Shown: positions 6,501 to 23,248, counted from the stretch's first letter. The stretch is DNA of 53,400 nt from Vulcanimicrobiota bacterium (GCA_003135555.1 PLCF01000082.1:1-53400); one strand, 5' to 3'. The notes: a model not told the origin generated them from the letters alone. Program-made: numbers and translations.

Positions 6501-9259
6501 TGTGGTTCGGGCGCGATCCGAACTCGCTGCGGCTCAAGCTCGACAAACCCACCTACAAGCCCGGCGACACGGCGACGGTGCTGGTGCAGTCACCCTTCCC
6601 GCACGCGGAGGTACACGTGGCGGTCGTCCGGCACGGCGTACTCTGGGAGACCACGCAACGCACCAGCAGCGCCGCGCCGACCGTGCGCTTCCGCGTCACG
6701 CCCGAGATGCTGCCCAACGCCGCCGTCGAGGCCTTCGCCGTACGGCGCGGCGCGCCGCCGTCCAAAGAGCTCGCCGACGGCGGCAATGCGCTCGCGCGCA
6801 CCGGGTTCGCCGCCTTCGGCGTCGCACTCGACGGGAAGTACATCACGGCGACGGCGAGGAGTGCATCCGCGGTGCTCGCGCCGGGCACCCGGCAAACCGT
6901 GCGCGTGCATTTGGCCGACGCGCAGCATCGTCCGCTGCAAGCGCAAGCGACCTTGATGGTGGTCAACGACGCGGTGTTGCGGCTGACCGGATACCGGCCG
7001 CCGGACCTGGTCAAAACGGTGTACGCCGAGCAACCGATCTCGACGCGCTACGCCGACAACCGCGCGGCCCTGGTGCTCAACACCCTGCGCCGGCCGCTCG
7101 AGAAGGGTTGGGGCTTCGGCGGCGGCCTGTCGGGAGAAGAAGCCGACCCGCGCGTGCGTCGCAAGTTCGAGGCGCTGGCCTACTTCGCCGGCGCGCTGCG
7201 CACCGACGCGCAAGGGAATGCCAGCGCGAGCTTCACCCTGCCCGACGATCTCACCACCTGGCGCGTCATGGTCGTCGGCGCGACCGCCGACGGCCGCTTC
7301 GGCAACGGCGAGTCGACGTTCCGCACGACCAAACCGCTCGTCGCGAACCCGGTCGTGCCGCAGTTCGCGCGGCCCGGCGACCGCTTCGACGCGGGCGTTT
7401 CGGTGACGAATGGAACCGGCGCCGGCGGAACGGTGCACATCGATGCGTCGCTGACGGGCCCGTTGGCGTTTCTCGTCAACGGAAAGCCCACCGCAACCAC
7501 GTCGCTCGATGCGCCGCTCGACCGCATCACCAAAGCCTACCGCTTCGCGGTGGTTGCGAGCGCAACCGGCGTCGCGACCGCGACGATGCGCGTGCGCGGG
7601 GCAGGGCGGGGCGATGCGTTCGCGATCCCCGTTCCCGTCCGCGACACCGACGTCACGGAATCCGTCGTGCAGACCGGCACCACCGGCGATCGCGCCGCGA
7701 TCGGGCTCGACGTCGCTTCCGGTACCCCGCGCGATGCGGGCGGAGTCGAGATTGCGCTCGCCTCGTCGTTGATCCCCGAGGTCACCGTGGCGGCGAACGA
7801 CGCGCTCAAGGGTGACGAGCGGCTGGCGATCTCCGCGGCGAGCCGCCTGTCGATCGCGGGCGACCTCGTGCTGCTCGCCAAGCGCACCGGCGCCGATGCG
7901 CGCACGGCGCGCGACCGCGCGCTGCTCGAGCTGGCGATCCTGCACGATCTGCAGCGCGCGGACGGCGGCTTCGCCCCGTACTGGCGCTCCGACACGTCGG
8001 ATCCCTGGGATTCGTTGCCCGCATTGGCCGCGCTGGGGCGCGCCGGCGAGGCCGGGATCCCCGTCGACTCAGCGATGCTCAGCGGCGCCCAGCGCTACGC
8101 GGCGAGCGTGCTCGCCGACCCGACGGCGCGCGCGAAATGGTGTCGCCAGGATCTCTGCAAGGCCCAGTTGCGTCTCTACGCGCTCGATGGGCTCGCGGCG
8201 ACCGGCGTTCGCCGTACGACCTTCTTGAGCGACATCGCGGCACAGGGCGACGCGCTCTCCTTTGCCGATCGCGCGCGGTTGGCGCGCCTCATGACGCCGG
8301 CGGCCGGGTATGGCGTGCAAGCTGCGGCGCTCACCAAGTCGATCGACGACCAACTCTACCTCACCGGTCGCGGCGGCGCGGTGAACCTGCCGGGTCGCTA
8401 CAGCTGGCTCGCCGACCGGGTCGTGGCGCAGGCGGAAGCGTTGCGCCTCGAGCTGGTGCGCAATGCCGACGGCGAAACGCTCGACCGGCTCACGCGCTCG
8501 CTGCTCGACATGCGCCGCAACGGTTCGTTCGGCTGTGCCTGCGAGAACGCCGCGGCGCTCGGTGCGATCGTCGAGGTGGCGCAACGCGAGCACCCCGCAA
8601 GCTTCACCGCGACGGCGACGCTGGCCGGCAAGTCCGTCGCCCGCGAGACGTTCAGCGGCGCTGCCGCGCCGCAGCGCAGCACCCGCATCGCGATGCGCGA
8701 TCTGCCCGGCGGCCGTAGCGGGCTCGCCCTGGCGAAGAACGGCTCCGGAACGCTGCACTACGCCGTGACGTACACGTATCGCCTCAGCGGCGCCGCGCCC
8801 GGCCGCCTGGCCGGCCTGCGCGTCACGCGCGTCATCCGCGAGGCGAACACCACCGCCGTGCTGGGCACCATGGGGCTCGCCGCGCCGGGCGCGGCGCTCG
8901 CGCTGCCCGCCGCGCACGTCTACGACATCGAGCTGCAGATCGTCAGCGACCACCCGGTCGAGCGCGTCGTCATCACCGACCCGCTTCCGGCCGGACTAGA
9001 AGCCGTCGACACGTCGTTCGCGACCACCTCGCCGGCGCTCCAGCTGCAGGCGGCGTCGTGGTCGATCGGCGATCAGCAGATTCGCGCCGACCGCATCGAA
9101 GCGTACGCCGATCAACTCGACGCCGGCGTCTATCGGCTGCACTATCTGGCGCGCACCGTCACGCCGGGGACGTTCGCTTGGCCGGGGGCGAACGCGCACC
9201 TCGTCGGCCGTCCCGACGAGTTCGGCCGCAGCGCAACCTCGGTTGTTGTGATCAAATAG
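3593..9259 (+). CDS. Bacterial alpha-2-macroglobulin family lipoprotein (1888 aa)
   Basis: Lipobox FAAG-C; SDRALYQPGE, FRVAEFKPPNF, LDKPTYKPGD, LPDDLTTWRVM, QRADGGFAPYW, DPLPAGLEAVD, YLARTVTPGTF. GTG start. Confidence 0.93.
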   Translation: MIRHARRATAFATLAAALFAAGCAPHAPTPKREPLPAVLPLPAPQMQAPIAAVAPVGDVGTLAQIRVVFSADLIPLERLESPDETALLAHFSIAPALAGHFRFLTPRMVGFEADRAWPAATRVRVTVAKGLRDRGGRTLADDLAWTFQTDPIKLDDLPGRYEHDQMLDLAPKITFTSNVALDRASLEAHASLRRHGEGGPAVRLVVPPDTAKASASPGATPPPDQEYDPSQQAWRYVLVPDGTLAKGARYDIAIEPGLVARDGNLPSAVAFTGSFVTPGELRFVRVGLVSGGRFANGNPRLIFSTPIDPKSLGALALDPPAPRGTTPFAATYKDVGINASLLAPNTGYAVTIGADLRDTYGQRLGAPMRATFRTGDLAPDVWAPSGTNVFPASRDVRLNVVAVNAPVNVRAIFRPLRPADVVQYPDLSGDTDRGDVLPPSAAWPPFDVHAARNVERTVEVPLRAKLGAPGGVLGYGVTATYGKDARFVSSGVVQLTDLGAFAQWFPDGGSVRVHRIADGTPVAGASVEVYPSQADAETKSAPALCATATTDAAGVAAFPRSAFGRCAAYDKGEDSAPSFVTIVRRGGDWTYVRTDSSSGAYAGDFFNGWSSAKPLARGIIYSDRALYQPGETAQLTAVGWFLVDGVLRHGTAPSYALTLKLPSGESRDLGRRSLDAFGSLSIPVALPKNAALGYYSLRASAGNGETIDGDFRVAEFKPPNFKVDLALDHEVAPRSAVVAARAVNAYLFGAPLAGASTKFTVTRSPADFTPKRRESFTFGRHWFWPQQAPDASTDVLESTVTVDADGRSSVSVPVAADLPFPMTYRVDAETTDASNIAVADSKSFTALPSDTLVGVKTDDVGIAGTPLAVSAIATDPSGAARSGTKIHVELQLASYADATQIVEGAEQAQTTVTYATVASADATSADAPVSVALTPRKPGSYRLRANVAGAADDAGETDAEVFVGGSGETVWFGRDPNSLRLKLDKPTYKPGDTATVLVQSPFPHAEVHVAVVRHGVLWETTQRTSSAAPTVRFRVTPEMLPNAAVEAFAVRRGAPPSKELADGGNALARTGFAAFGVALDGKYITATARSASAVLAPGTRQTVRVHLADAQHRPLQAQATLMVVNDAVLRLTGYRPPDLVKTVYAEQPISTRYADNRAALVLNTLRRPLEKGWGFGGGLSGEEADPRVRRKFEALAYFAGALRTDAQGNASASFTLPDDLTTWRVMVVGATADGRFGNGESTFRTTKPLVANPVVPQFARPGDRFDAGVSVTNGTGAGGTVHIDASLTGPLAFLVNGKPTATTSLDAPLDRITKAYRFAVVASATGVATATMRVRGAGRGDAFAIPVPVRDTDVTESVVQTGTTGDRAAIGLDVASGTPRDAGGVEIALASSLIPEVTVAANDALKGDERLAISAASRLSIAGDLVLLAKRTGADARTARDRALLELAILHDLQRADGGFAPYWRSDTSDPWDSLPALAALGRAGEAGIPVDSAMLSGAQRYAASVLADPTARAKWCRQDLCKAQLRLYALDGLAATGVRRTTFLSDIAAQGDALSFADRARLARLMTPAAGYGVQAAALTKSIDDQLYLTGRGGAVNLPGRYSWLADRVVAQAEALRLELVRNADGETLDRLTRSLLDMRRNGSFGCACENAAALGAIVEVAQREHPASFTATATLAGKSVARETFSGAAAPQRSTRIAMRDLPGGRSGLALAKNGSGTLHYAVTYTYRLSGAAPGRLAGLRVTRVIREANTTAVLGTMGLAAPGAALALPAAHVYDIELQIVSDHPVERVVITDPLPAGLEAVDTSFATTSPALQLQAASWSIGDQQIRADRIEAYADQLDAGVYRLHYLARTVTPGTFAWPGANAHLVGRPDEFGRSATSVVVIK

Positions 9260-9273
9260 GAACGCTGGTGGCC

Positions 9274-9338
9274 CATGCTTCGTCCTTCGACGGAGCTCAG
9301 GACGGCTCAGCATGACGATGATGCTCTGTCAGCATGAC
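9274..9338. repeat. REP-like palindromic element(s) between convergent genes
   Basis: catgcttcg-[tccttcgacggagctcaggacg]-gctcagcatgac. The 10-mer tcagcatgac occurs twice (9307, 9329). Confidence 0.5.
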
Positions 9339-9348
9339 AATGAACAGG

Positions 9349-9981
9349 TTAACGGATTAAGCCGCGGCGGTAGGCGGTGACGGCGGCGTGCGCGCGGTCG
9401 GAAGCGGAGAGCTTGGCCAAGATGTCGGCGACGTGACCTTTCACCGTGCCCAGGCTGATGTGAAGCTGCTCCGCGATCTCGGCGTTGCCGGTGCCGCCCG
9501 CGATCAGGGTGAGGATCTCGGTCTCGCGCGCCGACAGCGGCGACGGCTCGGGCTGCGCGGCGGAGCCCCCGAGGCGGCGCAATACGACGTGCGCGATCTT
9601 CGGATCGAAGTACGCGCCGCCGGCCGCGACGATGCGGACGGCGTCGATGACCACCGCCGGATCGGACGACTTGACGCAGTAGGCTTCGGCGCCGGCGGCG
9701 ATCGCAGCGAGGACCTCATCTCCGAGCTCGTGCATCGTGAGGATCACGATGCGCGGTGCGTTCGCGCGAGCCTTGAGCTCGCGGGTCAGCGCGATCCCGT
9801 CCTTTCCGGGCAGGCCGAGATCGACGACCGCAACGTCCGGCTGCGTCCGCACGATCGTGTCGAAGCCGCTGACGCCGTCCTGCGCCTCGGCGACGACGTC
9901 GATCCCCGCGGCTTCGAGCGACGCGCGCAGCCCCGCGCGAACGAGCGCGTGATCCTCGACCAAGACGACCCGCAGGCTCAC
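9349..9981 (-). CDS. NarL/LuxR-family DNA-binding response regulator
   Basis: REC domain (VVLVEDH, VVDLGLP, YCVKS) plus LuxR HTH LSARETEILTLIAGG..NAEIAEQLHISLGTVKGHV. Start overlaps the kinase stop. Confidence 0.95.
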   Translation of the reverse strand: MSLRVVLVEDHALVRAGLRASLEAAGIDVVAEAQDGVSGFDTIVRTQPDVAVVDLGLPGKDGIALTRELKARANAPRIVILTMHELGDEVLAAIAAGAEAYCVKSSDPAVVIDAVRIVAAGGAYFDPKIAHVVLRRLGGSAAQPEPSPLSARETEILTLIAGGTGNAEIAEQLHISLGTVKGHVADILAKLSASDRAHAAVTAYRRGLIR

Positions 9982-11516
9982 GAGCGTGCCTTCGGCAGCG
10001 CGAGCGTGAACTCCGACCCGCGCGGCTCGCGCGGCGCGTAGCGCACCGTGCCGTCGCTCTCTTCGGCGATGCGGCGGACGATGTAGAGGCCCAACCCCGT
10101 TCCGCCGCCGGCGCGCGACGCGGTCGAGAAGCGTTCGAACAGCGCGGAGCGCATGCGCGCGTCGATCCCGTAGCCGTCGTCGCTGACGGTCACCGTGACT
10201 CGGTCGCCGGTCGAGGCCACGCCGACGGTCACCGATCCTCCCTGGGGCGTGTGCTGCAACGCGTTGGCGACCAGGTTGGCGATCGCGCGTTTGAGGTCGC
10301 CGCGCGAGGCACGCACCGCGGGTACCGTGCCTGCCGCGATGACCAGCGCGATGCCGCGCGACTGCGCCAACGCCTGCAGCTCGACGGCGATGTCGTTCAC
10401 CACCGCGGCGAGATCGACCGGCTCGGACTGCGGGCGCCGGTCGCCCGATTCGATGCGCGCCACGAGAAGCAGCGTCTCGGCGAGCCGGCGCAGGTCGTCG
10501 ATCGAAACGAGGCTTTCGCGCAACACGCTCGCATAGCGCTCGGGGAGCGCGCCGAACGCGCCGTCCGAGGCTTGGCGCAGCGTCATCGAGAGCGCCGCGA
10601 GCGGCGTGCGCAAATCGTGCGAGAGCGCGTAGACCAGATCGCGAATGACGTCTTGACGTTCGCTCAGCGCCGCGTTGCGCTCGGCGAGCTCGCCGAAAAG
10701 CCGCGCTTGGCCTAGCGCGTTAACCGCCAGCGTGGCATAGGCGCGGGCCGTCGAGACCACCGCGTCGTCCGGCGCTTCCGCGTCCGAGGTCGCGATGAGC
10801 ACGCCGAAGGTGCGGCCGTGCTCCGCGAGCGGGATGGCGAGCGCGCTGCGCGCACGCAGACGATCGAGCACGAATCTTCCGACCGGATCGACGGCGCGCA
10901 CCACCGCGACGGCACGATCGTCGAGGACGCGTTGCGCCAGCGAAACGATCTCGGACGACGGCCGTTCGTCGACGACCTCGACCTCGGCGGCACCGCCGCG
11001 CGAAGCCAGGACCTCGCCGCCGGCACCCGACGGATACCAGTACGTCGCGACCGCTTCGAGCGCCGACGGTGCCTCGCGAACGATGGCACGGATGACGACC
11101 TCGGGAGAGAGTGAACCCCGAATGCGGTCTGCCGCCGCCGACAGCGTGGCTTCGCGGCGGGCCCGCGCCTCTTGCGCCGCGAGGCGCCCGACGCGCTCCG
11201 CGCGTTCTTGCACGGCGGTGCTGAGGTATCCGACGAGCACGATCGAGAGCATCGAAAGAAGCCGGTCGCCGACGCCGATCGGCTCCCAGCGGTAGCCGTC
11301 GTGAGCGGCGTTGATGCTGGCCGCGGCGCCATCCGCCGCGAGCGCCGCGATCACCAGCCACGCGGTGAGCCGGCGGCTGCGGGTGAGTGCCGCCAGGACG
11401 ATCGGAACGTCGAGCAAGATCGCGACGACCAGCGCTTGCGGCGTCAACACGTCGATGACGAAGACCGCCGCCAAGAGCGCGAAGGCGGTGACCGCGACGG
11501 CTCGCGAACGCACCAT
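9978..11516 (-). CDS. Membrane sensor histidine kinase (about 4 TM, GAF, HisKA, HATPase); resembles the C-terminal half of KdpD
   Basis: ATG 11516 follows GAAGG. Four hydrophobic segments, LSHDLRTPL H-box, NLVANALQHT, DDGYGI, GGTGLGLYIV. The ORF-track extension to 12308 is antisense to the next gene. Confidence 0.9.
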   Translation of the reverse strand: MVRSRAVAVTAFALLAAVFVIDVLTPQALVVAILLDVPIVLAALTRSRRLTAWLVIAALAADGAAASINAAHDGYRWEPIGVGDRLLSMLSIVLVGYLSTAVQERAERVGRLAAQEARARREATLSAAADRIRGSLSPEVVIRAIVREAPSALEAVATYWYPSGAGGEVLASRGGAAEVEVVDERPSSEIVSLAQRVLDDRAVAVVRAVDPVGRFVLDRLRARSALAIPLAEHGRTFGVLIATSDAEAPDDAVVSTARAYATLAVNALGQARLFGELAERNAALSERQDVIRDLVYALSHDLRTPLAALSMTLRQASDGAFGALPERYASVLRESLVSIDDLRRLAETLLLVARIESGDRRPQSEPVDLAAVVNDIAVELQALAQSRGIALVIAAGTVPAVRASRGDLKRAIANLVANALQHTPQGGSVTVGVASTGDRVTVTVSDDGYGIDARMRSALFERFSTASRAGGGTGLGLYIVRRIAEESDGTVRYAPREPRGSEFTLALPKARS

Positions 11517-11561
11517 TGCGCCTTCGGGGAGCCTTCCGGCCGCCCTGCGAACGTCGTCGTG

Positions 11562-13655
11562 ATGCGCGACGATCGGCGGTCGGACGCCTCCGCGGTGCTG
11601 GCCGAGCTGGGGCTCACGCCGCGGCTGACGATTTACCTCGCCGGCGCGCCGGGCGCCGGGAAGACGCATCGTCTGCTGAGCGACGCGCAGCGCGAAGCGC
11701 AGGCCGGGCGCCGGGTAGCGATCGGATGGATCGAAACCAAGAACCGGCCGCAGCTCGAAGCGCTCGCCGCCGGGCTGCCGCGCATTCCGCCGCGGCGCTA
11801 CCCGCTCGCCGAGACGACGGTCGAGGACTTCGATCTCGACGCCGCTCTGGCGAGTGACTTCGAGACGATCGTTTTGGACGAGCTCGCGCACGCGAACCCG
11901 CCCGGCGCCGCGCACGCGAAGCGCTGGCAGGATGCGCAGGCCCTGCGTGACGCGGGAAAATCGGTGCTCGGGGCGTTCAACGTGATGCACCTCGACACGG
12001 TGGCGCCGGTCGCCGAGCGCATCATCGGCTACCCGGTCCGCGAGCTCGTTCCGGTAGCATTCCTGCGTGCCGCCGATCGCGTGATCGCTCTTGACGTCGC
12101 CCCCTCGATACTCGAATCGCGGCTGCGCACCGGCCGCATCGTGCGCGATGAGGACGTCGAACGCGCCGCCGCAGGGGTCTTTGCGCCCAAGAATCTGAGC
12201 ATGATGCGCGAGCTGCTCTTGCGCGTCGTGGACGATCTCACCATTCCGGTCGTCGCACCGAGCAAGGTCTCCATCGCACTCGCCGTGGTCGCCGGCATCG
12301 GCGACCACGAGCCGTTCATGCGCCGGGCGGCGGCTTTCGCCGACGCGCTCGATCTAGCTCTGGAGTGCACCGCGGTCGACGCCGCCGACGTGCACCACTT
12401 CGCCGAGGCCGCGGCTCGGGTCGACGGCGGCGCGATCCCGCTCCCCGCGGGGTTGGCGGGCGGCGACCTGCGCGCAGTGCGCGCCTCGGTCGTGATCGTA
12501 CCGTTCGGCGCATTGGCCGGCCGAATCCTGACGCAACCGCTCGACCGCGACCTGCTCGTCGTCGATCCCCTGCGAAACACGCTGCCGCGGGCGTACGAAG
12601 CCGTGCGCCATCCCTATACCGCGGCGCTGGGTGACCGGCTGCGCATCGGTTACGGCACGCTGACCATCTACTTGGGTGCGGTGGCGGGAAGCGGAAAGAC
12701 GTACGCGATGCTCGACCGGGCCCACCAGCTCATCGAGGAAGGCATCGACGTGGTTGCGGCATTGGTCGAGACGCACGGTCGCGCCGAAACGGCGGCGCTG
12801 CTCGAGGGGATCGAGCAGATTCCGCGATTGGCGAACGGCGAGATCGATCTGGAGACCCTCCTGGAGCGACACCCCAAGGTCGCCTTGATCGACGAGCTCG
12901 CGCACACCAACGAAGGCGCCGGCGCGCGCGCGAAGCGCTACGACGACGTGATCGCCGTCTTGCGCAGCGGCGTCAGCGTCATCACGACGCTCAACGTGCA
13001 GCACTTCGAGGGCGTCGGCGACGCCGTCCAACGGCTGACCGGGACGCGGGTTCGCGAGACGCTCCCCGACAGCGTGCTCGAACTCGCCGACGAGGTCGTC
13101 TTCATCGACGTCACGCCCGACGTGCTCCGGCAGCGGCTGCGCGAAGGGAAGATCTATCCGGCCGAGCGCGTCGAGACGGCTCTGCAAAACTTTTTCCGCA
13201 CCGAGAACCTGGCGGCGTTGCGCGAGCTGACCGTGCGCGAGATCCTGCGGGCCCGGTCGGAACGGCGCCGCGAACGGCCGTTCGCGCGCATCGTCCTGGG
13301 CGTCGCGCCGCGCGCACGCGACGCCGCGTTGATCGGACGCGTGGGCCGGCTCGCGCGCCGGCTCGACGTGGACCTGCGCGTCGTCGTCGTGACCTCACGC
13401 GACGACGACGAGCTGCGCGCGATCGTCGACGTGCTGGCCCGCGCGGCCGGCACCGCGAAAGCGAGCTTCCTGGCCGACGTTGCCCCCGACCCGGCCGTTT
13501 GCGTGGCCCAGATGCTGTCCGATGGGGATGTCGTCGCGGTAGAGTCCCCGCGCCGGCGGCGCGGCTGGTTCGGGAAGCGGTCGTTCGCGGTGCGGCTGCT
13601 TGCCGCCGGAGCGCGCGAGATGCTCGTCCTCGCGCCGCACGAGGTTTCGGTTTAG
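11562..13655 (+). CDS. kdpD: Soluble protein with two tandem KdpD N-terminal sensor (+Usp-like) modules; no TM or kinase domain
   Basis: Copy 1: IYLAGAPGAGKT, DELAHAN. Copy 2: IYLGAVAGSGKTYAML, ETHGRAET, DELAHTN, TTLNVQH, ALQNFFRTENLAALREL. Confidence 0.88.
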   Translation: MRDDRRSDASAVLAELGLTPRLTIYLAGAPGAGKTHRLLSDAQREAQAGRRVAIGWIETKNRPQLEALAAGLPRIPPRRYPLAETTVEDFDLDAALASDFETIVLDELAHANPPGAAHAKRWQDAQALRDAGKSVLGAFNVMHLDTVAPVAERIIGYPVRELVPVAFLRAADRVIALDVAPSILESRLRTGRIVRDEDVERAAAGVFAPKNLSMMRELLLRVVDDLTIPVVAPSKVSIALAVVAGIGDHEPFMRRAAAFADALDLALECTAVDAADVHHFAEAAARVDGGAIPLPAGLAGGDLRAVRASVVIVPFGALAGRILTQPLDRDLLVVDPLRNTLPRAYEAVRHPYTAALGDRLRIGYGTLTIYLGAVAGSGKTYAMLDRAHQLIEEGIDVVAALVETHGRAETAALLEGIEQIPRLANGEIDLETLLERHPKVALIDELAHTNEGAGARAKRYDDVIAVLRSGVSVITTLNVQHFEGVGDAVQRLTGTRVRETLPDSVLELADEVVFIDVTPDVLRQRLREGKIYPAERVETALQNFFRTENLAALRELTVREILRARSERRRERPFARIVLGVAPRARDAALIGRVGRLARRLDVDLRVVVVTSRDDDELRAIVDVLARAAGTAKASFLADVAPDPAVCVAQMLSDGDVVAVESPRRRRGWFGKRSFAVRLLAAGAREMLVLAPHEVSV

Positions 13656-14512
13656 AGGTAATAGCTCAAACCGAAGCCGACCCCATGATACTTGCCGGTC
13701 GAGACGGTCGGCGACGTGCTCGCCGAGGCGTCGAGCTGCAAGCGTGGACCGAGGTCGTGGTAGAGGCCGTAGATGTACTGGGTGCGGGTCGGCGTCCCCG
13801 GGCCGTTGGCCAGCGAGAACTGCGCGATCTCGGTGAAGAGCCCCGTCGAGTTGGGCAGCGTCGCGCTCACGACGAACGACGGGACGAACGAGGACCAGCG
13901 CTGCGTGCCGTTGGTCAGCGACTGCGATTGCAGCGTCGTCGCGACCGAGAACACCGGCGAGAGCGTGTAGCCGGCGTTGAGCGCGTACACCGCCGTCGAA
14001 CCGTTCGCGGACGTCCCGTTCGTGCCGGTCGGCACGGTGAAGAAGACCTGGCCGCCGTAATTGAACTTCGCGGTGTAGCCGAAGACGTACTTGAGCCCGG
14101 CGCCGACGTCGCTCGAGCCGACCGTCGCCGGCGAGCCGCCGGCGCTCGAGCGAACGAGCTGCGGGGGCGACACCTGGAACTCGAGCGCCGGAATCTTCGT
14201 GCCCACGCGGATCAGCGTCTGCGGGTACGTCACGGTGTTCCCGGTCCCGGGGGTGGTCGTGTTGAGATAGCCGGTCTCGATCTCGACGTGGTTGGGGCGG
14301 ACGGTGCACACGGAGTTCGTCACGGACGGCCGGGTGACGATCGCGGAGATCGACGTGCACGGGTCGTTGTTGCCCAGCGCCGGTCCGATCGGATTCGGCG
14401 CCGGGGTCGGCGATGCGGTGGGCGCCGGTGCGGGCACGGTCTGCGCGGTCACGGTGAGCGGGATGAGCGAAACCAGGGCCGCGGCGACCATCGCCGTCGA
14501 GGGACGAATCAC
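13652..14512 (-). CDS. Secreted, probable outer-membrane beta-barrel / porin-like protein; last gene of the kdp operon
   Basis: GTG start overlaps the kdpC TGA (GTGA) with AAGGAG upstream. Signal peptide, Pro-rich linker, alternating beta-strand pattern, C-terminal GVGFGLSYYL. Confidence 0.7.
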   Translation of the reverse strand: MIRPSTAMVAAALVSLIPLTVTAQTVPAPAPTASPTPAPNPIGPALGNNDPCTSISAIVTRPSVTNSVCTVRPNHVEIETGYLNTTTPGTGNTVTYPQTLIRVGTKIPALEFQVSPPQLVRSSAGGSPATVGSSDVGAGLKYVFGYTAKFNYGGQVFFTVPTGTNGTSANGSTAVYALNAGYTLSPVFSVATTLQSQSLTNGTQRWSSFVPSFVVSATLPNSTGLFTEIAQFSLANGPGTPTRTQYIYGLYHDLGPRLQLDASASTSPTVSTGKYHGVGFGLSYYL

Positions 14513-15129
14513 GTGCTTAGGGCTCCTTGCGCGTCGAGCGCGCGGTTCAGTTCGAAGACGTTGACGTGCGGCTCACCCAGCAGCCCGAACTGGCGCGGGA
14601 TGACGTGCGCGGCGACGAGGCTGCGCAGGCGCTCGATCGAGACGCCACGCGCTTTCGCGACGCGCGGCACCTGGTAGTACGCACCCTCCGGCGAGATGTC
14701 GGGATCGATCCCGCTCGCGCTCGAAGTGACCAGGTCCATCGGCACCGGGCCGGTCGCATCCGGATTGGCCTTGCGCAGCGCCGCGATCGTGCTGCGCGTG
14801 CCGTCGATGAGCTTCTTGCTGGTCGGGCCGAAGTTCGTTCCACCCGTCGACGTCGGATCGTAGCCCTTGCCGGCGGCCGACGGACGGCCCCCGAAGTACT
14901 GGGGCTTGGTCCAGTTCTGCCCGACCAGCTCCGAACCGATCAGCTTGCCGCTCTGGTCGAAGACGAGCGAGCCTTGCGCCTGGTGGTGGAACAACGCCGT
15001 GCCGATCCCCCAGATCACGAGCGGATAGATCAGTCCGAGCGCGACCACGGAGACGACGGTATACAGCACCGAGGTGACGATGTGACGCAGCGTCCCCTCG
15101 CGGGTCTCGGGGGTCTGAACAGTCGACAT
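14509..15129 (-). CDS. kdpC: K+-transporting ATPase subunit C
   Basis: GLIYPLVIWGI, GSELVGQ, YFGGRPSAAG, DLVTSSASGIDPDIS, GEPHVNVFELNRALD. Confidence 0.97.
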   Translation of the reverse strand: MSTVQTPETREGTLRHIVTSVLYTVVSVVALGLIYPLVIWGIGTALFHHQAQGSLVFDQSGKLIGSELVGQNWTKPQYFGGRPSAAGKGYDPTSTGGTNFGPTSKKLIDGTRSTIAALRKANPDATGPVPMDLVTSSASGIDPDISPEGAYYQVPRVAKARGVSIERLRSLVAAHVIPRQFGLLGEPHVNVFELNRALDAQGALST

Positions 15130-17186
15130 CAGTGCGCTCCCGTGAGATGGAGTCCGACCAGGATCAGATCGATCGCCTTGATCCCGATGAACGGCACGAT
15201 GATCCCGCCCAGGCCGTAGATCAGGACGTTCTCGCGCAGCACGGCATCGGCGCCGCGCGGACGGTACGGAACGCCGCGCAAGGCCAGCGGGATGAGCGCG
15301 ACGATGATCAGCGCGTTGAAGATGATCGCCGAGAGGATGGCACTCTGATGGGTCGCGAGCCGCATCACGTTGAGCGCGTCCATCGCCGGGTAGGTAGCCG
15401 CAAACATCGCCGGCAGGATCGCGAAGTACTTCGCTATGTCGTTGGCGATCGAAAACGTCGTCAGCGAACCGCGCGTCATCAGCAGCTGCTTGCCGATCTC
15501 GACGACCTCGATGAGTTTGGTCGGATCCGAGTCGAGATCGACCATATTGGCCGCCTCTTTGGCCGCCTGCGTCCCGGTGTTCATCGCGACGCCGACGTCG
15601 GCTTGGGCCAAGGCCGGGGCGTCGTTCGTGCCGTCACCGGTCATTGCGACCAGCCGGCCCTCGCTCTGCTCGCGCCGGATGAGGGACATCTTCGTTTCGG
15701 GGGTTGCCTCGGCAAGGAAGTCGTCGACACCGGCGTCACGGGCGATGGCGCTCGCGGTCAGCGGGTTGTCGCCGGTGATCATCACGGTGCGAATGCCCAT
15801 GGCCCGTAGGCGGTCGAAGCGCACCCGCATGTTCGGCTTGAGGATGTCGCGCAACCCGATCATGCCCAGGATGCGATTCCCGTCGGCCACGAGCAGCGGC
15901 GTGCCGCCGGCGCGCGCGACCCGCTCGACCTCGGCGCTCAGAACGTCGGTCGCGACCGCTGCGCCGGCCGCAGCAGCGTTCTGGGAGACCCAGCCGCGTA
16001 CCGCATCGGGTGCGCCCTTTCGCGACCGAGCACCATCGGCGTAGTCGACGCCCGACATGCGCGTGTACGCGCTGAACGGAACGACGACGGCACCAGCCGG
16101 CAGCGCGGCCGCGTCGGCGGTCAGCCCGATATGGCTCCCGGCAAGCAGCACGATCGAACGGCCTTCCGGCGTTTCGTCGGCGAGCGAAGCGAAGTATGCC
16201 ACACGGTGGAGCTCGGCCTCGACGACCCCCGGCGCGGGGATGATCTCCGTCGCTTGGCGGTTGCCGAGCGTGATCGTCCCGGTCTTGTCGAGCAGCAGCG
16301 TGTCGACGTCGCCGGCGGCTTCGACGGCCCGGCCCGACATCGCCAGGATGTTGCGCTGCAGCACCCGGTCCATCCCCGCGATGCCGATTGCGCTGAGCAG
16401 CCCGCCGATCGTGGTCGGGATCAGGCACACCAACAGCGCGATCAGCACGACGACGCTGGGCGTCGCGCCGGCGTAGATCGAAAACGGCGCGAGCGTCGCG
16501 ACCGCGATCACGAAGATGATGGTGAGGCCGGCGAGCAGGATCGAGAGCGCGATCTCGTTGGGCGTCTTTTGCCGCTGAGCGCCTTCGACGAGCGCGATCA
16601 TGCGATCGAGGAACGTTTCACCGGGGTTGGCGCTGACGACGTAGACGATGCGGTCGGAAAGGACGCGCGTCCCGCCGGTAACCGAGGAGCGGTCGCCGCC
16701 GGCTTCGCGAATCACCGGAGCGGACTCGCCGGTGATCGCCGATTCATCGACCGTGGCCGCACCCTCGACGATCTCGCCGTCGGTCGCGATGAGGTCGTTC
16801 GCCTCGGCCACGACGCGATCGCCGCGCCGCAGGCTCTCCGCCGGAATCCGAGCTTCGACCCCGTCCGTGAGGCGCCGCGCGGTGGTCTCGGTCTTGGTGC
16901 GGCGCAAGTACTCGGCTTGCGCCTTGCCGCGGCCTTCGGCCATGGCTTCCGCAAAATTCGCGAACAGCACGGTGAACCACAGCCAGGCCGAGATCGCGAC
17001 GTCGAACGAAGCTTGCCCGTTACGCAGGTCACGGAGGGCGAAGAAGATCGAGACGAGGGCGCCGACTTCGACGATGAACATGACCGGGTTACGGAGCTGC
17101 ACCCGCGGGTCGAGCTTGACGAACGACTGCCAAACCGCCGGCCAGAGGATCTCGGGATCGAGCAGCGAGCGTGCACGCGTAGCCAT
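15129..17186 (-). CDS. kdpB: K+-transporting P-type ATPase subunit B
   Basis: [20 protein letters not shown] phosphorylation motif, [17 protein letters not shown]. Confidence 0.98.
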
Positions 17187-17275
17187 TAGGATTCGGCCTC
17201 CTGAGGGAGTCCGAACCCTCCTCGGCTACGCCTCGTCAACGACATGAACTGCGCCGCGAAAGGCTTGGTGGTCAT
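17186..17275 (-). CDS. Putative 29-aa coupling peptide between kdpA and kdpB ([29 protein letters not shown])
   Basis: ATG directly follows the kdpA TAG, and its TAA overlaps the kdpB ATG (TAATG). It fills the 89-nt gap exactly. Confidence 0.45.
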
Positions 17276-18976
17276 CTAGAAGGTCTTTCCTTGGAGGTTC
17301 AGGAGGTGCTCGACGATCGGCCCCAGCGCGTCGGCCGGGAAGAACGTCAGCGCGCCGACGATGACGATGACACCGATGAGCAGGACGACGAAGATCGGCG
17401 ACGTCGTCCGGAACGTTCCGGCGGTCGTCGCCACGGCTTGCTTTGCGACCAGCGAGCCGGCGAGCGCGAGCACCGGGATCATGATCGCGATGCGCCCGAA
17501 CAGCATCACGACGCCGCCCGAAATGTTCCACCACGTGTTGGGGGAGAGTCCCGCGAACGCAGAACCGTTGTTGTTCACCATCGAGGAGTAGGCGTAGAGG
17601 ATTTCACTGAAGCCGTGCGGTCCGCCGTTGTTGAGCGTCGCGGTCCCCGCGGGCAGGACCGATGCGATCCCGGCGGGGACGAGCGCGAACACCGGAACGA
17701 TGAGCGCCGCGAGGATGGCGAGCTGCACCTCGCGCCGCTCGATCTTCTTTCCGAGATACTCGGGCGTGCGGCCCACCATGAGCCCGGCGATGAAGACCGT
17801 CAAGACGGCGTAGTAGATGATCCCGTAGAATCCCGAACCGACGCCGCCGAAGACGACCTCCCCCATCTGCATGTTGAACAGCGGGATCAGCCCGCCCAGT
17901 GCGGTGAACGAATCGTGCATTGCGTTGACCGCGCCGCACGACGTACCGGTCGTCATCGTCGCGAACAGGGCCGACGCGGCAATCCCGAAGCGCGTCTCCT
18001 TGCCTTCCATGTTCGCGCCGGCCACACCGAGAGCGTGAACGGCCGGATTGCCGGCGGCCTCGGCGGCGTACGCCGCGACGAACCCGCCGACGAACAGCGT
18101 CGTCATCGCGGCGAAGAGCGCCCACCCTTGACGCTGGTCCTTGACGTAGCGCCCGAACGTGTACGTCAGCGCTCCGCCCAACATGAAGATGCAGACGAGC
18201 TCGATGAGGTTGCTCAGGCCGGTCGGGTTCTCCCAGGGCGACGCCGAGTTGGCGTTCACGAAACCGCCGCCGTTCGTTCCCAGCTCCTTGATGATCTCTT
18301 GCGAGGCCATCGGCCCCATCGGGATCGACTGCTTCGCGCTTTCCATCGTCGTTGCGGTGGGGTACGCGTCGAAGTTCTGCGGGACGCCCTGCCAGAGCAG
18401 CACCAGCGCGCCGACGAATGCGATCGGCAGCAGCACGTACAGGGTGCAGCGGGTGAGGTCGACCCAGAAGTTTCCGATCGTACTCATCTGGCGGCGCGCC
18501 AGTGCCCGCATCAAGGCGATAGCGATCGCGATTCCCATACCCGCGGAGACGAAGTTGTGCCAGGCGAGCCCGGCCATCTGCGAGAGATAGCTCATCGTCG
18601 ACTCGCCGCTGTAGAACTGCCAGTTCGTATTCGTCATGAACGAGATGGCGGTGTTCCAGGCGAGATCGGGGGCGAGGTTGCCGAAGCCTTGCGGATTGAG
18701 CGGTAGAAACGCCTGGAGCCGCAACAGCGCGTACAGGTAGGCGAAGCTCACCAGCGAGAACGCGATCACCGCGAACGCGTAGCCCTTCCACCCCATCTCG
18801 CGCGCCGGGTTGATGCGGCACAAGCGATAGATGAGACGCTCTACCGGTCCGATGACCGGCGTGAGGAAAACGCGTTCGCCCTCGAATACGCGCGCCATGT
18901 ACGCGCCGACCGGTTTCACCAGGAGGCACACGAGCGCAAAGACCAGAGCGGCCTGGAGCCACCCGACGATCGTCAT
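17276..18976 (-). CDS. kdpA: K+-transporting ATPase subunit A
   Basis: SFMTNTNWQFYSGE, KELGTNGGGF, TSCGAVNAMHDS, GRTPEYLGKKI, NNNGSAFAGL; GAGGAG upstream. Confidence 0.98.
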   Translation of the reverse strand: MTIVGWLQAALVFALVCLLVKPVGAYMARVFEGERVFLTPVIGPVERLIYRLCRINPAREMGWKGYAFAVIAFSLVSFAYLYALLRLQAFLPLNPQGFGNLAPDLAWNTAISFMTNTNWQFYSGESTMSYLSQMAGLAWHNFVSAGMGIAIAIALMRALARRQMSTIGNFWVDLTRCTLYVLLPIAFVGALVLLWQGVPQNFDAYPTATTMESAKQSIPMGPMASQEIIKELGTNGGGFVNANSASPWENPTGLSNLIELVCIFMLGGALTYTFGRYVKDQRQGWALFAAMTTLFVGGFVAAYAAEAAGNPAVHALGVAGANMEGKETRFGIAASALFATMTTGTSCGAVNAMHDSFTALGGLIPLFNMQMGEVVFGGVGSGFYGIIYYAVLTVFIAGLMVGRTPEYLGKKIERREVQLAILAALIVPVFALVPAGIASVLPAGTATLNNGGPHGFSEILYAYSSMVNNNGSAFAGLSPNTWWNISGGVVMLFGRIAIMIPVLALAGSLVAKQAVATTAGTFRTTSPIFVVLLIGVIVIVGALTFFPADALGPIVEHLLNLQGKTF

Positions 18977-18988
18977 GGTGCTAACTCC

Positions 18989-19078
18989 TCAGAAACGTTC
19001 GGGGCGCAGCATCGCATAGGTCAGATACACCAGCGCGCCGATGGCCAAGATCAGGCCGATGATGAGGTCCGCAGTCAT
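18989..19078 (-). CDS. kdpF: K+-transporting ATPase subunit F (29 aa, MTADLIIGLILAIGALVYLTYAMLRPERF)
   Basis: Translated by hand. Hydrophobic helix with the canonical YL..A.LRPERF end, directly upstream of kdpA. Confidence 0.93.
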   Translation of the reverse strand: MTADLIIGLILAIGALVYLTYAMLRPERF

Positions 19079-19170
19079 ATCTTCTCGCAGCCGATCACGT
19101 ACCGGTCGAGCAGCCAGAACGAGAGCGCGGTCAGAACGAGCAGTCCGAGCTCGATCGCGATAGTGTTCAT
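19075..19170 (-). CDS. Small hydrophobic kdp-associated peptide (31 aa, MNTIAIELGLLVLTALSFWLLDRYVIGCEKI)
   Basis: GAGGTG SD-like sequence upstream, ATGA overlap with kdpF, single TM helix and a GCEKI tail. Confidence 0.75.
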   Translation of the reverse strand: MNTIAIELGLLVLTALSFWLLDRYVIGCEKI

Positions 19171-19174
19171 CGTC

Positions 19175-19261
19175 TCACCTCAACGGGATGCGCGCGGAAA
19201 GCCGATCCGCTGCCAGCGCGACGACCGGACACACTGCAATCAGGGCGACAATCCAAAGCAT
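19175..19261 (-). CDS. Small hydrophobic peptide, first ORF of the kdp operon (28 aa, MLWIVALIAVCPVVALAADRLSARIPLR; alternative ATG at 19270)
   Basis: ATG lies 7 nt after a TACCAT box (leaderless-type). Single TM helix. The stop lies 4 nt before the next ATG. Confidence 0.6.
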   Translation of the reverse strand: MLWIVALIAVCPVVALAADRLSARIPLR

Positions 19262-19268
19262 CGGATTC

Positions 19269-19324
19269 ATGGTAGCGCGACGGGACTCCGGGCGGCACCC
19301 GCCGTTCGGCCGAACCGTTCGGCT
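19269..19324 (-). promoter_or_regulatory. kdp promoter: GCCGAA-ccg-TTCGGC box (19309-19323) and -10-like TACCAT (19274-19269)
   Basis: The 24-mer at 19301-19324 matches 21483-21506 at 23/24 positions, with identical spacing to a TAnnnT hexamer. Confidence 0.7.
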
Positions 19325-19335
19325 CGGCGCGCTGC

Positions 19336-19506
19336 TCAGAAGTCCCCGTAGAGAGCGGCGTCGGCGTCGGCGTCGGCATCCGCGTCGCCGTGCCCCAAGC
19401 CTCCTTCGCGAAGCGCTCGGGACTTGGCGCGATCTAAGCTCCGCCCCACGAGACTGGACAGACCGATGACCAGCGCAGCCGACAACGCACCGATGATGAT
19501 GTCCAT
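19336..19506 (-). CDS. Small membrane protein with acidic (DA)n tail (56 aa, MDIIIGALSAALVIGLSSLVGRSLDRAKSRALREGGLGHGDADADADADAALYGDF)
   Basis: Translated by hand. N-terminal TM helix and its own promoter motif upstream. Fills the kup-kdp gap. Confidence 0.6.
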   Translation of the reverse strand: MDIIIGALSAALVIGLSSLVGRSLDRAKSRALREGGLGHGDADADADADAALYGDF

Positions 19507-19515
19507 GGCGTCGCC

Positions 19516-19572
19516 AGCGTACGCCGATGGACGGCGCCGCGGGAGCTGTCTTCTAGCCGAACCTTTCGGCCG
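19516..19572 (-). promoter_or_regulatory. Promoter of the 56-aa ORF: GCCGAA-cct-TTCGGC box (19556-19570) and TACGCT (19521-19516)
   Basis: Same core palindrome and same 34-bp spacing as the kdp and kup promoters. Confidence 0.6.
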
Positions 19573-19573
19573 C

Positions 19574-21442
19574 TCAGAGGTTGACGGTGACGCCGAGCTC
19601 GACGCGGCGCTCGGCCGGGATCTTGAGATCGTCGGGCAAGGGGCGCGCGTTGAGCTGCAGCGTGGCGAACAGGTCGCGGCGCCAGGCCGGCATACCGTCT
19701 TTTATCGCCGGCTCGATCTTCGGATCGGCGTAGAAGAACGACGTGTCGTCGCGATCGAGCTCCAGACCGAACGCGCTGCACGATCGAAAGATGGGGTCGA
19801 TGCGCGGCGCCTCCATGTATCCGAACCGGGCGACGACCCGGATCAACCGCAACGAAAATCGCTCGACCGTGACGCGCTCCTCGTCGGTCAGGTAGGGTTT
19901 TCCGGCGCGTGCGATGTTGAGGATGACGATGCGCTCCTCTTGCGCGCGGTCGCGTATCCACTGGTGCCGGGCCAGGAATGGAACGCCGCGCGGGTCCGGC
20001 GTCAGGAACACCATGGTGCCCTGGTCGCCGACCCCGGGCGGTAAGCGCTCGAGCACGTCTTCGATCGGTATCTGCTGCGCGGCGAGCGCACCGGTCAAGC
20101 CGCGCCGCCCCTCGAGCCACGTGAGGCTTCCGATCACCAGCACCGTGCTGATGCCGATCGGGATCCAGCCGCCGTCGAGGAACTTCGGTAGCGAGGCGAC
20201 GACGAGGCTGCTGTCGACGACGGCGAAGAGTGCGACCACCAGCAAGGACAGTGCCCGGTTCCAGTGCAGAACCTTGGTGATGACCGCGTAGTACGCCAAC
20301 GAAGTGCACAGCATCGTGCACGCGACGGCTAGGCCGTACGCCGATGCGAGACGGTCGCTGGACCGAAACGCGACCACCAGGATCGCGCAGCCGATCGCGA
20401 GCCACCAGTTCACCGCCGGCACGAAGACTTGCCCCTTGTGCTGGTGCGACGTGTGCCGCACGAGAACACGCGGCGCCAGGTTGAGCGCGATCGCCTGCTC
20501 GACCAAGGTGAACGTCCCCGAGATGAGCGCTTGTGAGGCGATGACGGTCGCAATCGTCGCCAGCACGACCATCGGGATGAGGGCCCAGCCCGGCGCCAGC
20601 GCGTAAAACGGGTTGGCGAACGCGTGCGGATCGGCGACCAACTTCGCACCTTGGCCGAAGTAGTTCAGGATCAGCGCCGGAAAGACCAACGCATACCAGC
20701 CGGTGACGATCGGACCGCGCCCGAAGTGCGACATGTCGGCGTAGAGGGCTTCGACGCCGGTTACGGCCAGCACGACGCCGCCCAGAATCGTGAACCCGGC
20801 CAGACCGTTGCGGGTGAGGAACGCCAAGCCGTAACGCGGATCCAGCGCCCGCAGTACCTCGGGATCGTGGACGATCGCCACCAGTCCGAGCACGCCGATG
20901 ACGGCGAACCATGCGAGCATCACCGGACCGAACAGCGTGCCGACGCTCGCGGTGCCGCGGCGCTGCAAGGCGAAGAGCCCGACGACGACGGCGAGCGAGA
21001 TCGGCACGACGAACGGCTGGAACTCGCTCGACACGACGCTGACCCCTTCGACCGCCGAGATGATCGAAATCGCCGGCGTGATGATCCCGTCGCCGAGCAG
21101 CATCGACGCACCGATCACGACGATCAGGGTCAACCCCGCGGGGGCGATCATCTTGCCGAACGCCGGCGGCGGCGAGGCCAGAGCGAGCAGCGCGAGGATG
21201 CCGCCTTCGCCGTCGTGGTCCACGCGCATGATGAAGGTCGCGTACTTGATGCAGACCACGACGACCAGTGCCCACACCAGCAGCGAAAGGATCCCTAAGA
21301 CATCCCCCACGCCACCCTTGGAGCCCGCAAGCCCGAGGCAGACCTTGAGCGTGTACAGCGGGCTGGTGCCGATGTCTCCGAACACGACGCCCATGGCCGC
21401 GACGACGAGCGCGAGGCGGGCCGGCGCAGCGCGCAGAGTCAT
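19574..21442 (-). CDS. kup: KUP/HAK/KT family potassium uptake transporter
   Basis: GVVFGDIGTSPLY, DGEGGILAL, GDGIITPAIS, TGVEALYADMSHFG, ASQALISG, ARFGYME. Confidence 0.97.
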   Translation of the reverse strand: MTLRAAPARLALVVAAMGVVFGDIGTSPLYTLKVCLGLAGSKGGVGDVLGILSLLVWALVVVVCIKYATFIMRVDHDGEGGILALLALASPPPAFGKMIAPAGLTLIVVIGASMLLGDGIITPAISIISAVEGVSVVSSEFQPFVVPISLAVVVGLFALQRRGTASVGTLFGPVMLAWFAVIGVLGLVAIVHDPEVLRALDPRYGLAFLTRNGLAGFTILGGVVLAVTGVEALYADMSHFGRGPIVTGWYALVFPALILNYFGQGAKLVADPHAFANPFYALAPGWALIPMVVLATIATVIASQALISGTFTLVEQAIALNLAPRVLVRHTSHQHKGQVFVPAVNWWLAIGCAILVVAFRSSDRLASAYGLAVACTMLCTSLAYYAVITKVLHWNRALSLLVVALFAVVDSSLVVASLPKFLDGGWIPIGISTVLVIGSLTWLEGRRGLTGALAAQQIPIEDVLERLPPGVGDQGTMVFLTPDPRGVPFLARHQWIRDRAQEERIVILNIARAGKPYLTDEERVTVERFSLRLIRVVARFGYMEAPRIDPIFRSCSAFGLELDRDDTSFFYADPKIEPAIKDGMPAWRRDLFATLQLNARPLPDDLKIPAERRVELGVTVNL

Positions 21443-21450
21443 TGCCGTTC

Positions 21451-21518
21451 ATGCTACGCGGCTGCCCGCCGCGCCGGTACCAGCCGTTCGGCCGAACCTT
21501 TCGGCTGAACGCTTCGGC
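21451..21518 (-). promoter_or_regulatory. kup promoter: GCCGAA-cct-TTCGGC box (21491-21505), extra unit gctgaa-cgc-ttcggc, and -10-like TAGCAT (21456-21451)
   Basis: Near-identical to the kdp upstream sequence. ATG lies 8 nt after the hexamer, with no SD. Confidence 0.7.
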
Positions 21519-21534: not shown

Positions 21535-21867
21535 TTACGGCTTGCCGTACTGTGTGGTGAGGTAGTCGACGATCGCGGGCATCGCATCGTCGGCGATCGG
21601 AGCGCCGTAGACATTCTTCATCTTGGTCACCTCGGCGGCCCATTGCGCCTTGCTCAAGACCGGCTGCGTCGAGACGTAGGCCGAGGAATGGCACGTCAGG
21701 CAATTCGCCTGCGCCGCGCCCACGCCGGGCCCGGGCTTGAACGCCATCCCGATGTCGCCGGGCAGCGAGATCGATGCCGAGCCTTTCGGCGGTGCGGGCG
21801 TTCCCGCGGCGACGGCGCTCGCTCCCAGCGCGCCGAGACAGGCGAGAACGAGGAGCGTCCGCTTCAT
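21535..21867 (-). CDS. Mono-haem cytochrome c, SorB-like subunit of sulfite:cytochrome c oxidoreductase
   Basis: Signal peptide MKRTLLVLACLG, CLTCH haem motif, W.AEVTKMKNVYGAPI; ATGA overlap with the molybdoenzyme. Confidence 0.85.
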   Translation of the reverse strand: MKRTLLVLACLGALGASAVAAGTPAPPKGSASISLPGDIGMAFKPGPGVGAAQANCLTCHSSAYVSTQPVLSKAQWAAEVTKMKNVYGAPIADDAMPAIVDYLTTQYGKP

Positions 21868-23063: not shown

Positions 23064-23248
23064 GCAAGCGCCCTCCATCGATCCCGCCGACAGTGTGCTT
23101 CACGTCACGCGGCGGCATTCCTCGGCGGCGCAGAGCCCGGGCGTAATCTACTTTTCATCGGCTCCTCAGGCGGGTCCAATGCAGGCCGCCTTCGCCGGGC
23201 GTACGCTGCCGGTACAGGCTCTCATCTCGACAGGAGGTCACCCCTTAC

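Follow-up and report, generated by a model that had tools for sequence, protein, structure and literature searches.

The window, a 53,400-nucleotide stretch from an uncultured Vulcanimicrobiota bacterium of soil (GCA_003135555.1 PLCF01000082.1:1-53400) with a G+C content of ~70%, carries at positions 9,349 to 21,518 a potassium locus in which the genes for the KdpFABC pump lie beside what appears to be a split version of the sensor KdpD. The pump genes kdpF (18989 to 19078, 29 aa; PF09604, 43.4 bits), kdpA (17276 to 18976; PF03814, 802.6 bits; TIGR00680, 752 bits), kdpB (15129 to 17186; TIGR01497, 1016 bits), and kdpC (14509 to 15129; PF02669, 224 bits; NF001454, 206.8 bits against a cut-off of 178) are all on the minus strand. 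The models for KdpA, KdpB, KdpC, and KdpF all score above their cut-offs. Three further genes are candidates for its control. A NarL/LuxR-type response regulator of 210 aa (9349 to 9981) and a membrane histidine kinase of 512 aa (9978 to 11516) are encoded on the minus strand, and a soluble 697-aa protein in which a KdpD N-domain plus a Usp-like domain occurs twice is encoded on the plus strand (11562 to 13655). We refer to the last as the tandem protein. Four start/stop overlaps tie neighboring genes together: the GTG start of the regulator overlaps the stop of the kinase (GTGA), the start of a predicted outer-membrane β-barrel gene (ORF286) overlaps the stop of kdpC (also GTGA), and the same arrangement is seen for kdpB/kdpC and for kdpF and the micropeptide gene before it, whose stop overlaps the kdpF start. 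The tandem gene is convergent to ORF286, with overlapping stop codons, and diverges from the kinase gene across a 45-bp intergenic region (11517 to 11561) that was read directly from the DNA. Domain scans and reading of the DNA bore out the gene content and positions given in a first-pass annotation of this stretch, including the back-to-back gap. A mechanical list of open reading frames (ORFs) is misleading here because the two central frames overlap; its kinase of 776 aa (9978 to 12308) and tandem protein of 433 aa were rejected, the true starts being 11516 and 11562.

The tandem protein consists of two repeats. Its two PF02702 stretches score 451 bits together (257.3 and 199.6 bits at 11622 to 12230 and 12654 to 13244 in the genome scan), and its AlphaFold2 (AF2) model (pLDDT 85, pTM 0.80) has two repeats, each with a P-loop domain and, C-terminal to it, an alpha/beta domain. 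Structures similar to this model, by Foldseek, include 2r8r, a KdpD N-domain (TMt 0.89), and tandem universal stress proteins. Walker A (GxxxxGKT) and Walker B (DE) motifs, which an excerpt of Silberberg et al. 2024 (PMC11018627) describes as essential in Escherichia coli KdpD, are present in both halves. The C-terminal half is 44% identical to the Deinococcus radiodurans KdpD-N protein and carries GKTY, DELAHTN, NVQH, and RLREGKIY, as in D. radiodurans and Allomeiothermus; the N-terminal half is 35% identical and has GRIV where the C-terminal half has GKIY. All 15 Eremiobacterota sequences compared have GKTY and a DELAH-type Walker B in the C-terminal half, so that the residue after GKT is tyrosine in 15/15; it was matched to the adenine-contacting W39 of E. 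coli by position, not by alignment. By regular-expression search, the N-terminal half keeps Walker A in 12 and Walker B in 14 of these sequences. A diadenylate cyclase is encoded in the same genome.

To place the two halves, we built a quick tree from 102 KdpD-domain sequences, dropping matches of fewer than 120 profile positions; four Alicyclobacillus rows in it, labeled "single," are single halves of which one piece was kept at ORF extraction. The Eremiobacterota N-terminal halves grouped with the N-terminal half of a Gloeobacter protein and with other tandem proteins (20 rows; SH-aLRT 80), the Eremiobacterota C-terminal halves clustered with single short KdpD/Usp proteins, and the Bacillota halves paired with each other. 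Because of this grouping, the tree suggests that the tandem form arose by at least two separate duplications. The doubled architecture was found in 9/9 proteins tested by Pfam, including those from Gloeobacter, Sporolactobacillus, Dormibacterota, and Chloroflexota.

The kinase has an N-terminal transmembrane region followed, in Pfam order, by GAF (22.8 bits; cut-off 22.4), HisKA (42 bits), and HATPase_c (96.3 bits). Profile alignment (hhalign) with the DUF4118-GAF kinases of Alicyclobacillus gave a probability of 100, which is driven by the kinase core; the alignment begins in the transmembrane region, at helix 2, runs through GAF, and is collinear from residue 30 to the C terminus. We read the kinase, on this sequence comparison, as corresponding to the C-terminal half of KdpD in diverged form. 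It is 35% identical to D. radiodurans DR_B0082 over 500 columns that include the transmembrane region, and its best matches among 72,556 plasmid records are two kinases encoded next to kdp, one from a plasmid of Allomeiothermus silvanus (95% coverage) and the other from D. radiodurans MP1. The regulator has a receiver domain (Response_reg, 80.9 bits) and a GerE helix-turn-helix (59.9 bits; both Pfam) and therefore belongs to the NarL/FixJ type. It is 51% identical to D. radiodurans DR_B0081 over 207 columns, and the regulators of Allomeiothermus and D. radiodurans are both of the GerE type. Against the KdpE model (NF007820; cut-off 325), only the receiver part of the regulator was matched, at 46.4 bits (45.4 in the genome scan).

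Neither the tandem protein (370.5 bits) nor the kinase (85.5 bits) reaches the cut-off of the canonical KdpD model NF007793 (1123). The claim of the first-pass annotation that the window has no full-length kdpD and no OmpR-type kdpE stands, and it extends to the source assembly (3.57 Mb, 84% complete), in which no canonical kdpDE was found elsewhere. In this assembly, a PF02702 search matched nothing but the tandem gene's two domains; in each of five relatives that are 94 to 99% complete, it returned two matches, both within the tandem gene. No match in the genome reached the cut-off of the KdpE equivalog (best, 173 bits versus 325), and six full-length OmpR-type matches to that model all lie on other contigs.

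The kinase/regulator pair travels with the pump. In 15 of 17 loci around the tandem gene, taken from relatives in three families, this gene is accompanied by kdpA, kdpB, and kdpC as well as by the genes for the kinase and the regulator; of the other two, one stops at a contig edge and the second retains the kinase and regulator as fragments only. Of the 15 complete loci, 14 have the tandem gene and the kinase gene head to head, the exception being L022. Within the genus, the 45-bp intergenic region has a TTCGCAGGGCGG...CCCCGAAG stretch in common. The tandem gene is lacking from five relatives, of which three are ≥95% complete. KdpA was found in none of the five, and no kinase orthologue was found in them either, their best matches (at most 91 bits and at most 38% identity) covering the kinase core only and never reaching the transmembrane region. 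That the pair belongs to kdp, on which the earlier proposal depended, is supported by its synteny in 15/17 loci, by the lack of any kinase orthologue found in the five relatives in which KdpA was not found, and by its homology to the experimentally tested D. radiodurans pair. Of 121 genomes sampled across the phylum, all ≥85% complete, 56 carry the tandem gene at near full length, all from two families of one class (50 in f1, the window's genome included, and 6 in f3). A further 27 genomes from other families have one KdpD domain only, in frames of 327 to 941 aa, most of them 640 to 940 aa, as for ordinary KdpD. The 121-genome tally holds one unpublished genome (G036), as does the tally of Kup relatives given below (G048); removing them shifts each count by one and leaves the conclusions the same. 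The named homologues of the tandem protein come from metagenome-assembled genomes of Candidatus Eremiobacterota, labeled Elarobacter or Baltobacteraceae.

Several individual loci depart from the common layout. L022 (G006:C5) has a 1.4-kb insertion between the tandem gene and the kinase at 10947 to 12393, and the intergenic stretch CGCAGGGCGG...CCCGAAG is found at both of its ends. In L026 (G031:C3), kinase residues 1 to 76 and regulator residues 108 to 209 lie at 13119 to 13934 beside an intact tandem gene, and kdpABC was not found within 20 kb; this locus may be decaying. L018 (G030:C11) has, by eye, an ammonium-transporter-like ORF between kdpC and the tandem gene, at 8297 to 9550. In public records, tandem proteins of this kind, which lack a kinase, appear either as "hypothetical protein" or as "two-component system sensor histidine kinase KdpD"; the latter label is wrong, because the tandem protein has no kinase core.

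Split KdpD proteins with a separate two-component system are already on record. Passages of Dani et al. 2017 (PMC5716572) describe a split KdpD with a separate kinase and regulator in D. radiodurans, where deletion of DR_B0081 abolishes kdp induction; together with passages of Silberberg et al. (PMC11018627), they place this design in D. radiodurans, Anabaena, and Alicyclobacillus. The latter passages describe the KdpD N-domain as an atypical serine kinase that phosphorylates KdpB at Ser162 and thereby inhibits it, report that the isolated KdpD domain needs no histidine-kinase domains for this phosphorylation, and state that a short Deinococcus KdpD/Usp protein is stimulated by c-di-AMP. They give "KdpD/Usp ASK plus TM/GAF/DHpCA HK" on separate chains as the commonest split. 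The part of the supplement consulted catalogs both "KdpD domain, Usp domain x2" and "TM, GAF, DHpCA" as classes, the doubled label occurring at least 267 times, including in Alicyclobacillus and Gloeobacter and in some cases with a degenerate first domain; among the supplement rows listed, Eremiobacterota occurs 0 times. Both classes are those found here, the first domain here keeping its Walker B (DE) and lacking the aromatic residue after GKT; serine-kinase activity of the tandem protein is predicted. A published description of Synechocystis identifies Hik20/Rre19 as KdpD/KdpE counterparts and assigns Rre19 to the NarL subfamily (PMC7090099). Since the split with a separate two-component system, the NarL-type output, and the doubled KdpD/Usp class all appear in these published passages (PMC5716572, PMC11018627, PMC7090099), we do not uphold the earlier view that the combination is an undescribed, rewired three-component pathway; the locus is a lineage variant of split KdpD. 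A search by title and abstract returned no paper on Kdp regulation in Eremiobacter.

Compared with E. coli, the overall domain set and the pump are the same, but in E. coli the domains form one polypeptide paired with the OmpR-type KdpE. Among the closest known systems is that of D. radiodurans, which also has a split, kinase-less KdpD/Usp protein, a transmembrane kinase without a Pfam DUF4118 match, a GerE/NarL-type regulator, and a kinase-regulator operon that diverges from a gene of the kdp system. There, however, the KdpD/Usp protein is single and encoded last in the kdp operon (kdpBAC plus kdpD-N), with a 365- to 370-aa KdpD/Usp protein after kdpC in both D. radiodurans and Allomeiothermus, whereas the window encodes a doubled form, in a gene that converges on kdp and diverges from the kinase gene. 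An outer-membrane barrel gene after kdpC is likewise missing from D. radiodurans, whose control-region sequences also differ. Alicyclobacillus and Sporolactobacillus share kdpABC, a doubled KdpD/Usp gene, and a separate transmembrane-GAF-HisKA kinase with the locus described here, but their kinase has a clear DUF4118 (97 bits), their regulator is of the OmpR type (Trans_reg_C), and their doubled gene follows kdpC on the same strand; the mutual pairing of its halves in the quick tree suggests a separate duplication. The Alicyclobacillus kdp region is reportedly the subject of a paper by Schleussinger et al. from 2006. Like the tandem protein, a 753-aa protein of Gloeobacter kilaueensis has two KdpD and two Usp stretches, and its N-terminal half clusters with those of Eremiobacterota.

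We next consider the DNA upstream of kdp and kup. The palindrome GCCGAANNNTTCGGC has six exact sites in the genome, three of which are in this locus (19309, 19556, and 21491); with up to one mismatch, six sites occur in the window against 0.5 expected. Two of the three exact sites lie within a 21-nt element that is found upstream of the kdp leader (CCGAACGGTTCGGCCGAACGG, minus strand, 19302 to 19322) and ~40 nt upstream of the kup start (CCGAAAGGTTCGGCCGAACGG, minus strand, 21484 to 21504), and a half copy (GCCGAAAGGTTCGGC, 19556 to 19570) lies 3 nt past the kup stop. The 21-mer CCGAAMGGTTCGGCCGAACGG, allowing up to three substitutions, has only these two copies genome-wide. We rejected the three remaining exact palindrome sites (on contigs C40, C43, and C58), which are overlain by long open frames and show no extended element. 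In relatives, a degenerate form, CCGWWnGG-n5-CCGWWnGG, is matched at 14/14 positions in 9 of 15 kdp upstream windows and at 13/14 or better in 12 of 15, at -257 to -292 from kdpA; 14 of the 15 perfect matches in 325 kb of relatives' loci fall in kdp upstream windows. The element is also found 60 to 80 nt upstream of kup orthologues in the best Kup loci of 5 of 29 relatives; none of those five loci has kdp genes within 1.5 kb. One operator for both Kdp and Kup had been proposed in the first-pass annotation. The common element is real and, within the genome, unique to kdp and kup; that the NarL-type regulator binds and acts there, we infer.

Collectively, these data point, with a probability of roughly 70%, to the locus being a form, found in Eremiobacterota, of the split-KdpD control already known for KdpFABC, in which the kinase and the NarL-type regulator activate kdp and the tandem protein brakes the pump. 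Under potassium limitation, the transmembrane-GAF kinase, as the putative K+ sensor, would likely act with the regulator to switch on kdp transcription; in this genome, the pair would probably also activate one kup paralogue through the 21-nt element. The soluble doubled KdpD/Usp protein, a predicted atypical serine kinase, would phosphorylate KdpB at Ser155 and turn existing pumps off. KdpB has TGES at residues 152 to 155, and Ser155 therefore corresponds to E. coli Ser162. Because the published KdpD N-domain is a KdpB-inhibiting serine kinase, the soluble protein is likelier to be a post-translational brake than a third signaling input, and by analogy its most likely role is that of the pump's serine-kinase brake. 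Within it, the C-terminal repeat would be catalytic and the degenerate N-terminal repeat regulatory.

A number of observations weigh against this interpretation. The kinase has no Pfam DUF4118 match at E values up to 1, its core scores 132 bits with PhoR versus 85.5 bits with KdpD (NCBIfam), and KdpD ranks only 11th among solved structures matched to it. The tandem protein scores 407.8 bits with NF038185 ("KdpD-like non-kinase potassium sensor"), under the cut-off of 550, and its gene is outside the kdp operon and convergent to it. In its N-terminal half, the residue after GKT is histidine or arginine and is aromatic in 0 of 12 sequences; regular-expression searches found none of the Staphylococcus aureus c-di-AMP, E. 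coli Usp, or USP ATP motifs in either Usp-like region. The 21-nt element is absent between the kinase and tandem genes and was not seen, by eye, in the kdp control regions of D. radiodurans and Allomeiothermus; therefore, a link between regulator and element cannot be transferred from the tested homologue. The incompleteness of the assembly and the computational nature of the whole analysis count on the same side.

The model of the first-pass annotation, in which the tandem protein senses K+, a nucleotide, or a Usp partner in the cytoplasm, binds the membrane kinase, and adjusts the balance between its kinase and phosphatase activities in a true three-component pathway, is compatible with a serine-kinase role, and we consider it unlikely as an account of this locus. 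It would fit the divergent control region common to the tandem gene and the kinase operon, their conserved head-to-head order, and the presence of both parts on one chain in canonical KdpD. The separated N-domain of E. coli KdpD is also said to complement the C-terminal part. However, the activity that published passages ascribe to the isolated KdpD domain is KdpB phosphorylation, for which histidine-kinase domains are dispensable (PMC11018627). When the tandem protein was modeled in complex with the kinase's GAF-DHp portion, the prediction scored 0.01 (mark, 0.32), which weighs neither for nor against binding. Far less probable still, and already disfavored, is the idea that the kinase and regulator are an unrelated two-component system that merely adjoins kdp: the kinase core is generic, with PhoR, PnpS, and CztS as its best NCBIfam matches, but the class-wide synteny of the pair with kdp, their shared absence, and homology along the whole length to the D. 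radiodurans pair that experiment has tied to kdp all speak against mere adjacency. As for the 21-nt element, there is some chance, which we put at well under even, that it is not the operator of the NarL-type regulator and instead is bound by a different K+-responsive regulator or forms a structural RNA or DNA hairpin. Its core GCCGAAnnnTTCGGC is able to fold into a 6-bp hairpin, one half copy follows the kup stop, and the element is lacking both at the regulator's own divergent promoter and in the kdp control regions of D. radiodurans and Allomeiothermus. Yet its distance upstream of kdpA in relatives is near constant, a TAnnAT-like box (by eye) lies ~22 nt downstream of it at kdp and kup alike, no Rfam family matches it, and in distant families it takes the form of a clean inverted repeat, CCGAACGG-n5-CCGTTCGG, as expected for a dimeric helix-turn-helix protein.

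The split-KdpD reading can be taken one step further, as a speculation that we regard as doubtful. The doubled protein might be a covalent pseudo-dimer. On this view, its N-terminal repeat, which keeps the Walker motifs but has lost the adenine-contact aromatic residue, would be a regulatory module that senses either a nucleotide signal or the membrane kinase and in turn controls the serine kinase of the catalytic C-terminal repeat. With the NarL-type regulator acting on one operator for kdp, the operon-encoded outer-membrane channel, and the kup paralogue, this would amount to a compact potassium regulon with transcriptional and post-translational arms in an almost uncultured phylum. New here are the class-wide spread of the tandem form, its synteny with kdp, the 21-nt element, the kdpC-coupled barrel gene, and the micropeptide before kdpF. 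The split-KdpD design, studied in Deinococcus, cyanobacteria, and Alicyclobacillus, now extends to a whole class of Eremiobacterota. The element offers a predicted operator for NarL-type Kdp regulators, a binding site that we did not find described in the literature surveyed; the tandem protein offers a natural, asymmetric pairing of predicted KdpD serine-kinase domains as a candidate for biochemistry; and the predicted outer-membrane barrel gene, translationally coupled to kdpC, is a further testable feature. Current understanding is not overturned, and the value of the comparison lies in guiding the annotation of genes that are mislabeled in public records.

ORF286 (13652 to 14512, minus strand) encodes a 286-aa protein with, by eye, a signal-peptide-like start. 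No Pfam or NCBIfam family matched it. Its AF2 model (pLDDT 70.5) has 14 strands, predicting a barrel of 12 to 14 strands, and Foldseek matched it to NanC, KdgM, FapF, and a COG4313 channel (E ~1e-6, TM-scores of 0.5 to 0.6). Based on this model, ORF286 may be an outer-membrane channel that supplies the pump. It is present in all eight same-genus kdp loci; in six of nine loci from other genera (L017, L018, L019, L027, L029, and L030), a BBP2 porin (PF07642, 175 bits) lies beside kdp instead. The barrel genes beside kdp thus belong to two unrelated sequence families, ORF286 and the OmpL-like BBP2, which suggests, from sequence comparison, that channels have been recruited to the pump operon more than once. 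By title and abstract, nothing among the literature matches listed was on point for a kdp-linked porin.

The kup gene (19574 to 21442, minus strand; PF02705 [K_trans], 557 bits; PF22776 [K_trans_C], 101.7 bits) is one of three paralogues in the genome and scores 600.6 bits, below the E. coli Kup equivalog cut-off of 883. It adjoins kdp in this genome only, doing so in 0 of the 17 relatives' loci. The other two paralogues lie in tandem on another contig of the same assembly (G000, contig C46, 21448 to 23292 and 23410 to 25248) and are 51% and 78% identical to the Kup of the window; such a tandem pair is present in most relatives. Genome-wide scans placed no copy of the 21-nt element on C46.

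Of the several micropeptides proposed in the first-pass annotation, two of four, kdpF and a hydrophobic 31-aa peptide (19075 to 19170, minus strand), are conserved in relatives. The latter has no Pfam match; in the loci of 12 relatives, tblastn matched it immediately before kdpF (E, 9e-13 to 2e-3). The remaining two, at 19175 to 19270 (31 aa) and 19336 to 19506 (56 aa, with an Asp-Ala repeat tail), had no homologues in any locus compared or elsewhere in the genome and are probably not genes. A small hydrophobic ORF before kdpF also occurs in Alicyclobacillus/Sporolactobacillus (27 aa, MGD..FDK; L075, L077, L086, and L068) and in D. radiodurans (L033, 5395 to 6002), and a published passage on Clostridium acetobutylicum names kdpZ and kdpY in kdpZYABCXDE.

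An Rfam scan of the whole window matched no family, and thus no c-di-AMP riboswitch. Between 9200 and 21800, a sigma-70 consensus scan gave 0 promoter-like sites, and terminator-like sites were no more frequent than in shuffled sequence. Upstream of kup, a 527-aa ORF (21535 to 23118, minus strand) that matches no Pfam family at E ≤0.01 has a CxxCH haem-binding motif at its C terminus.

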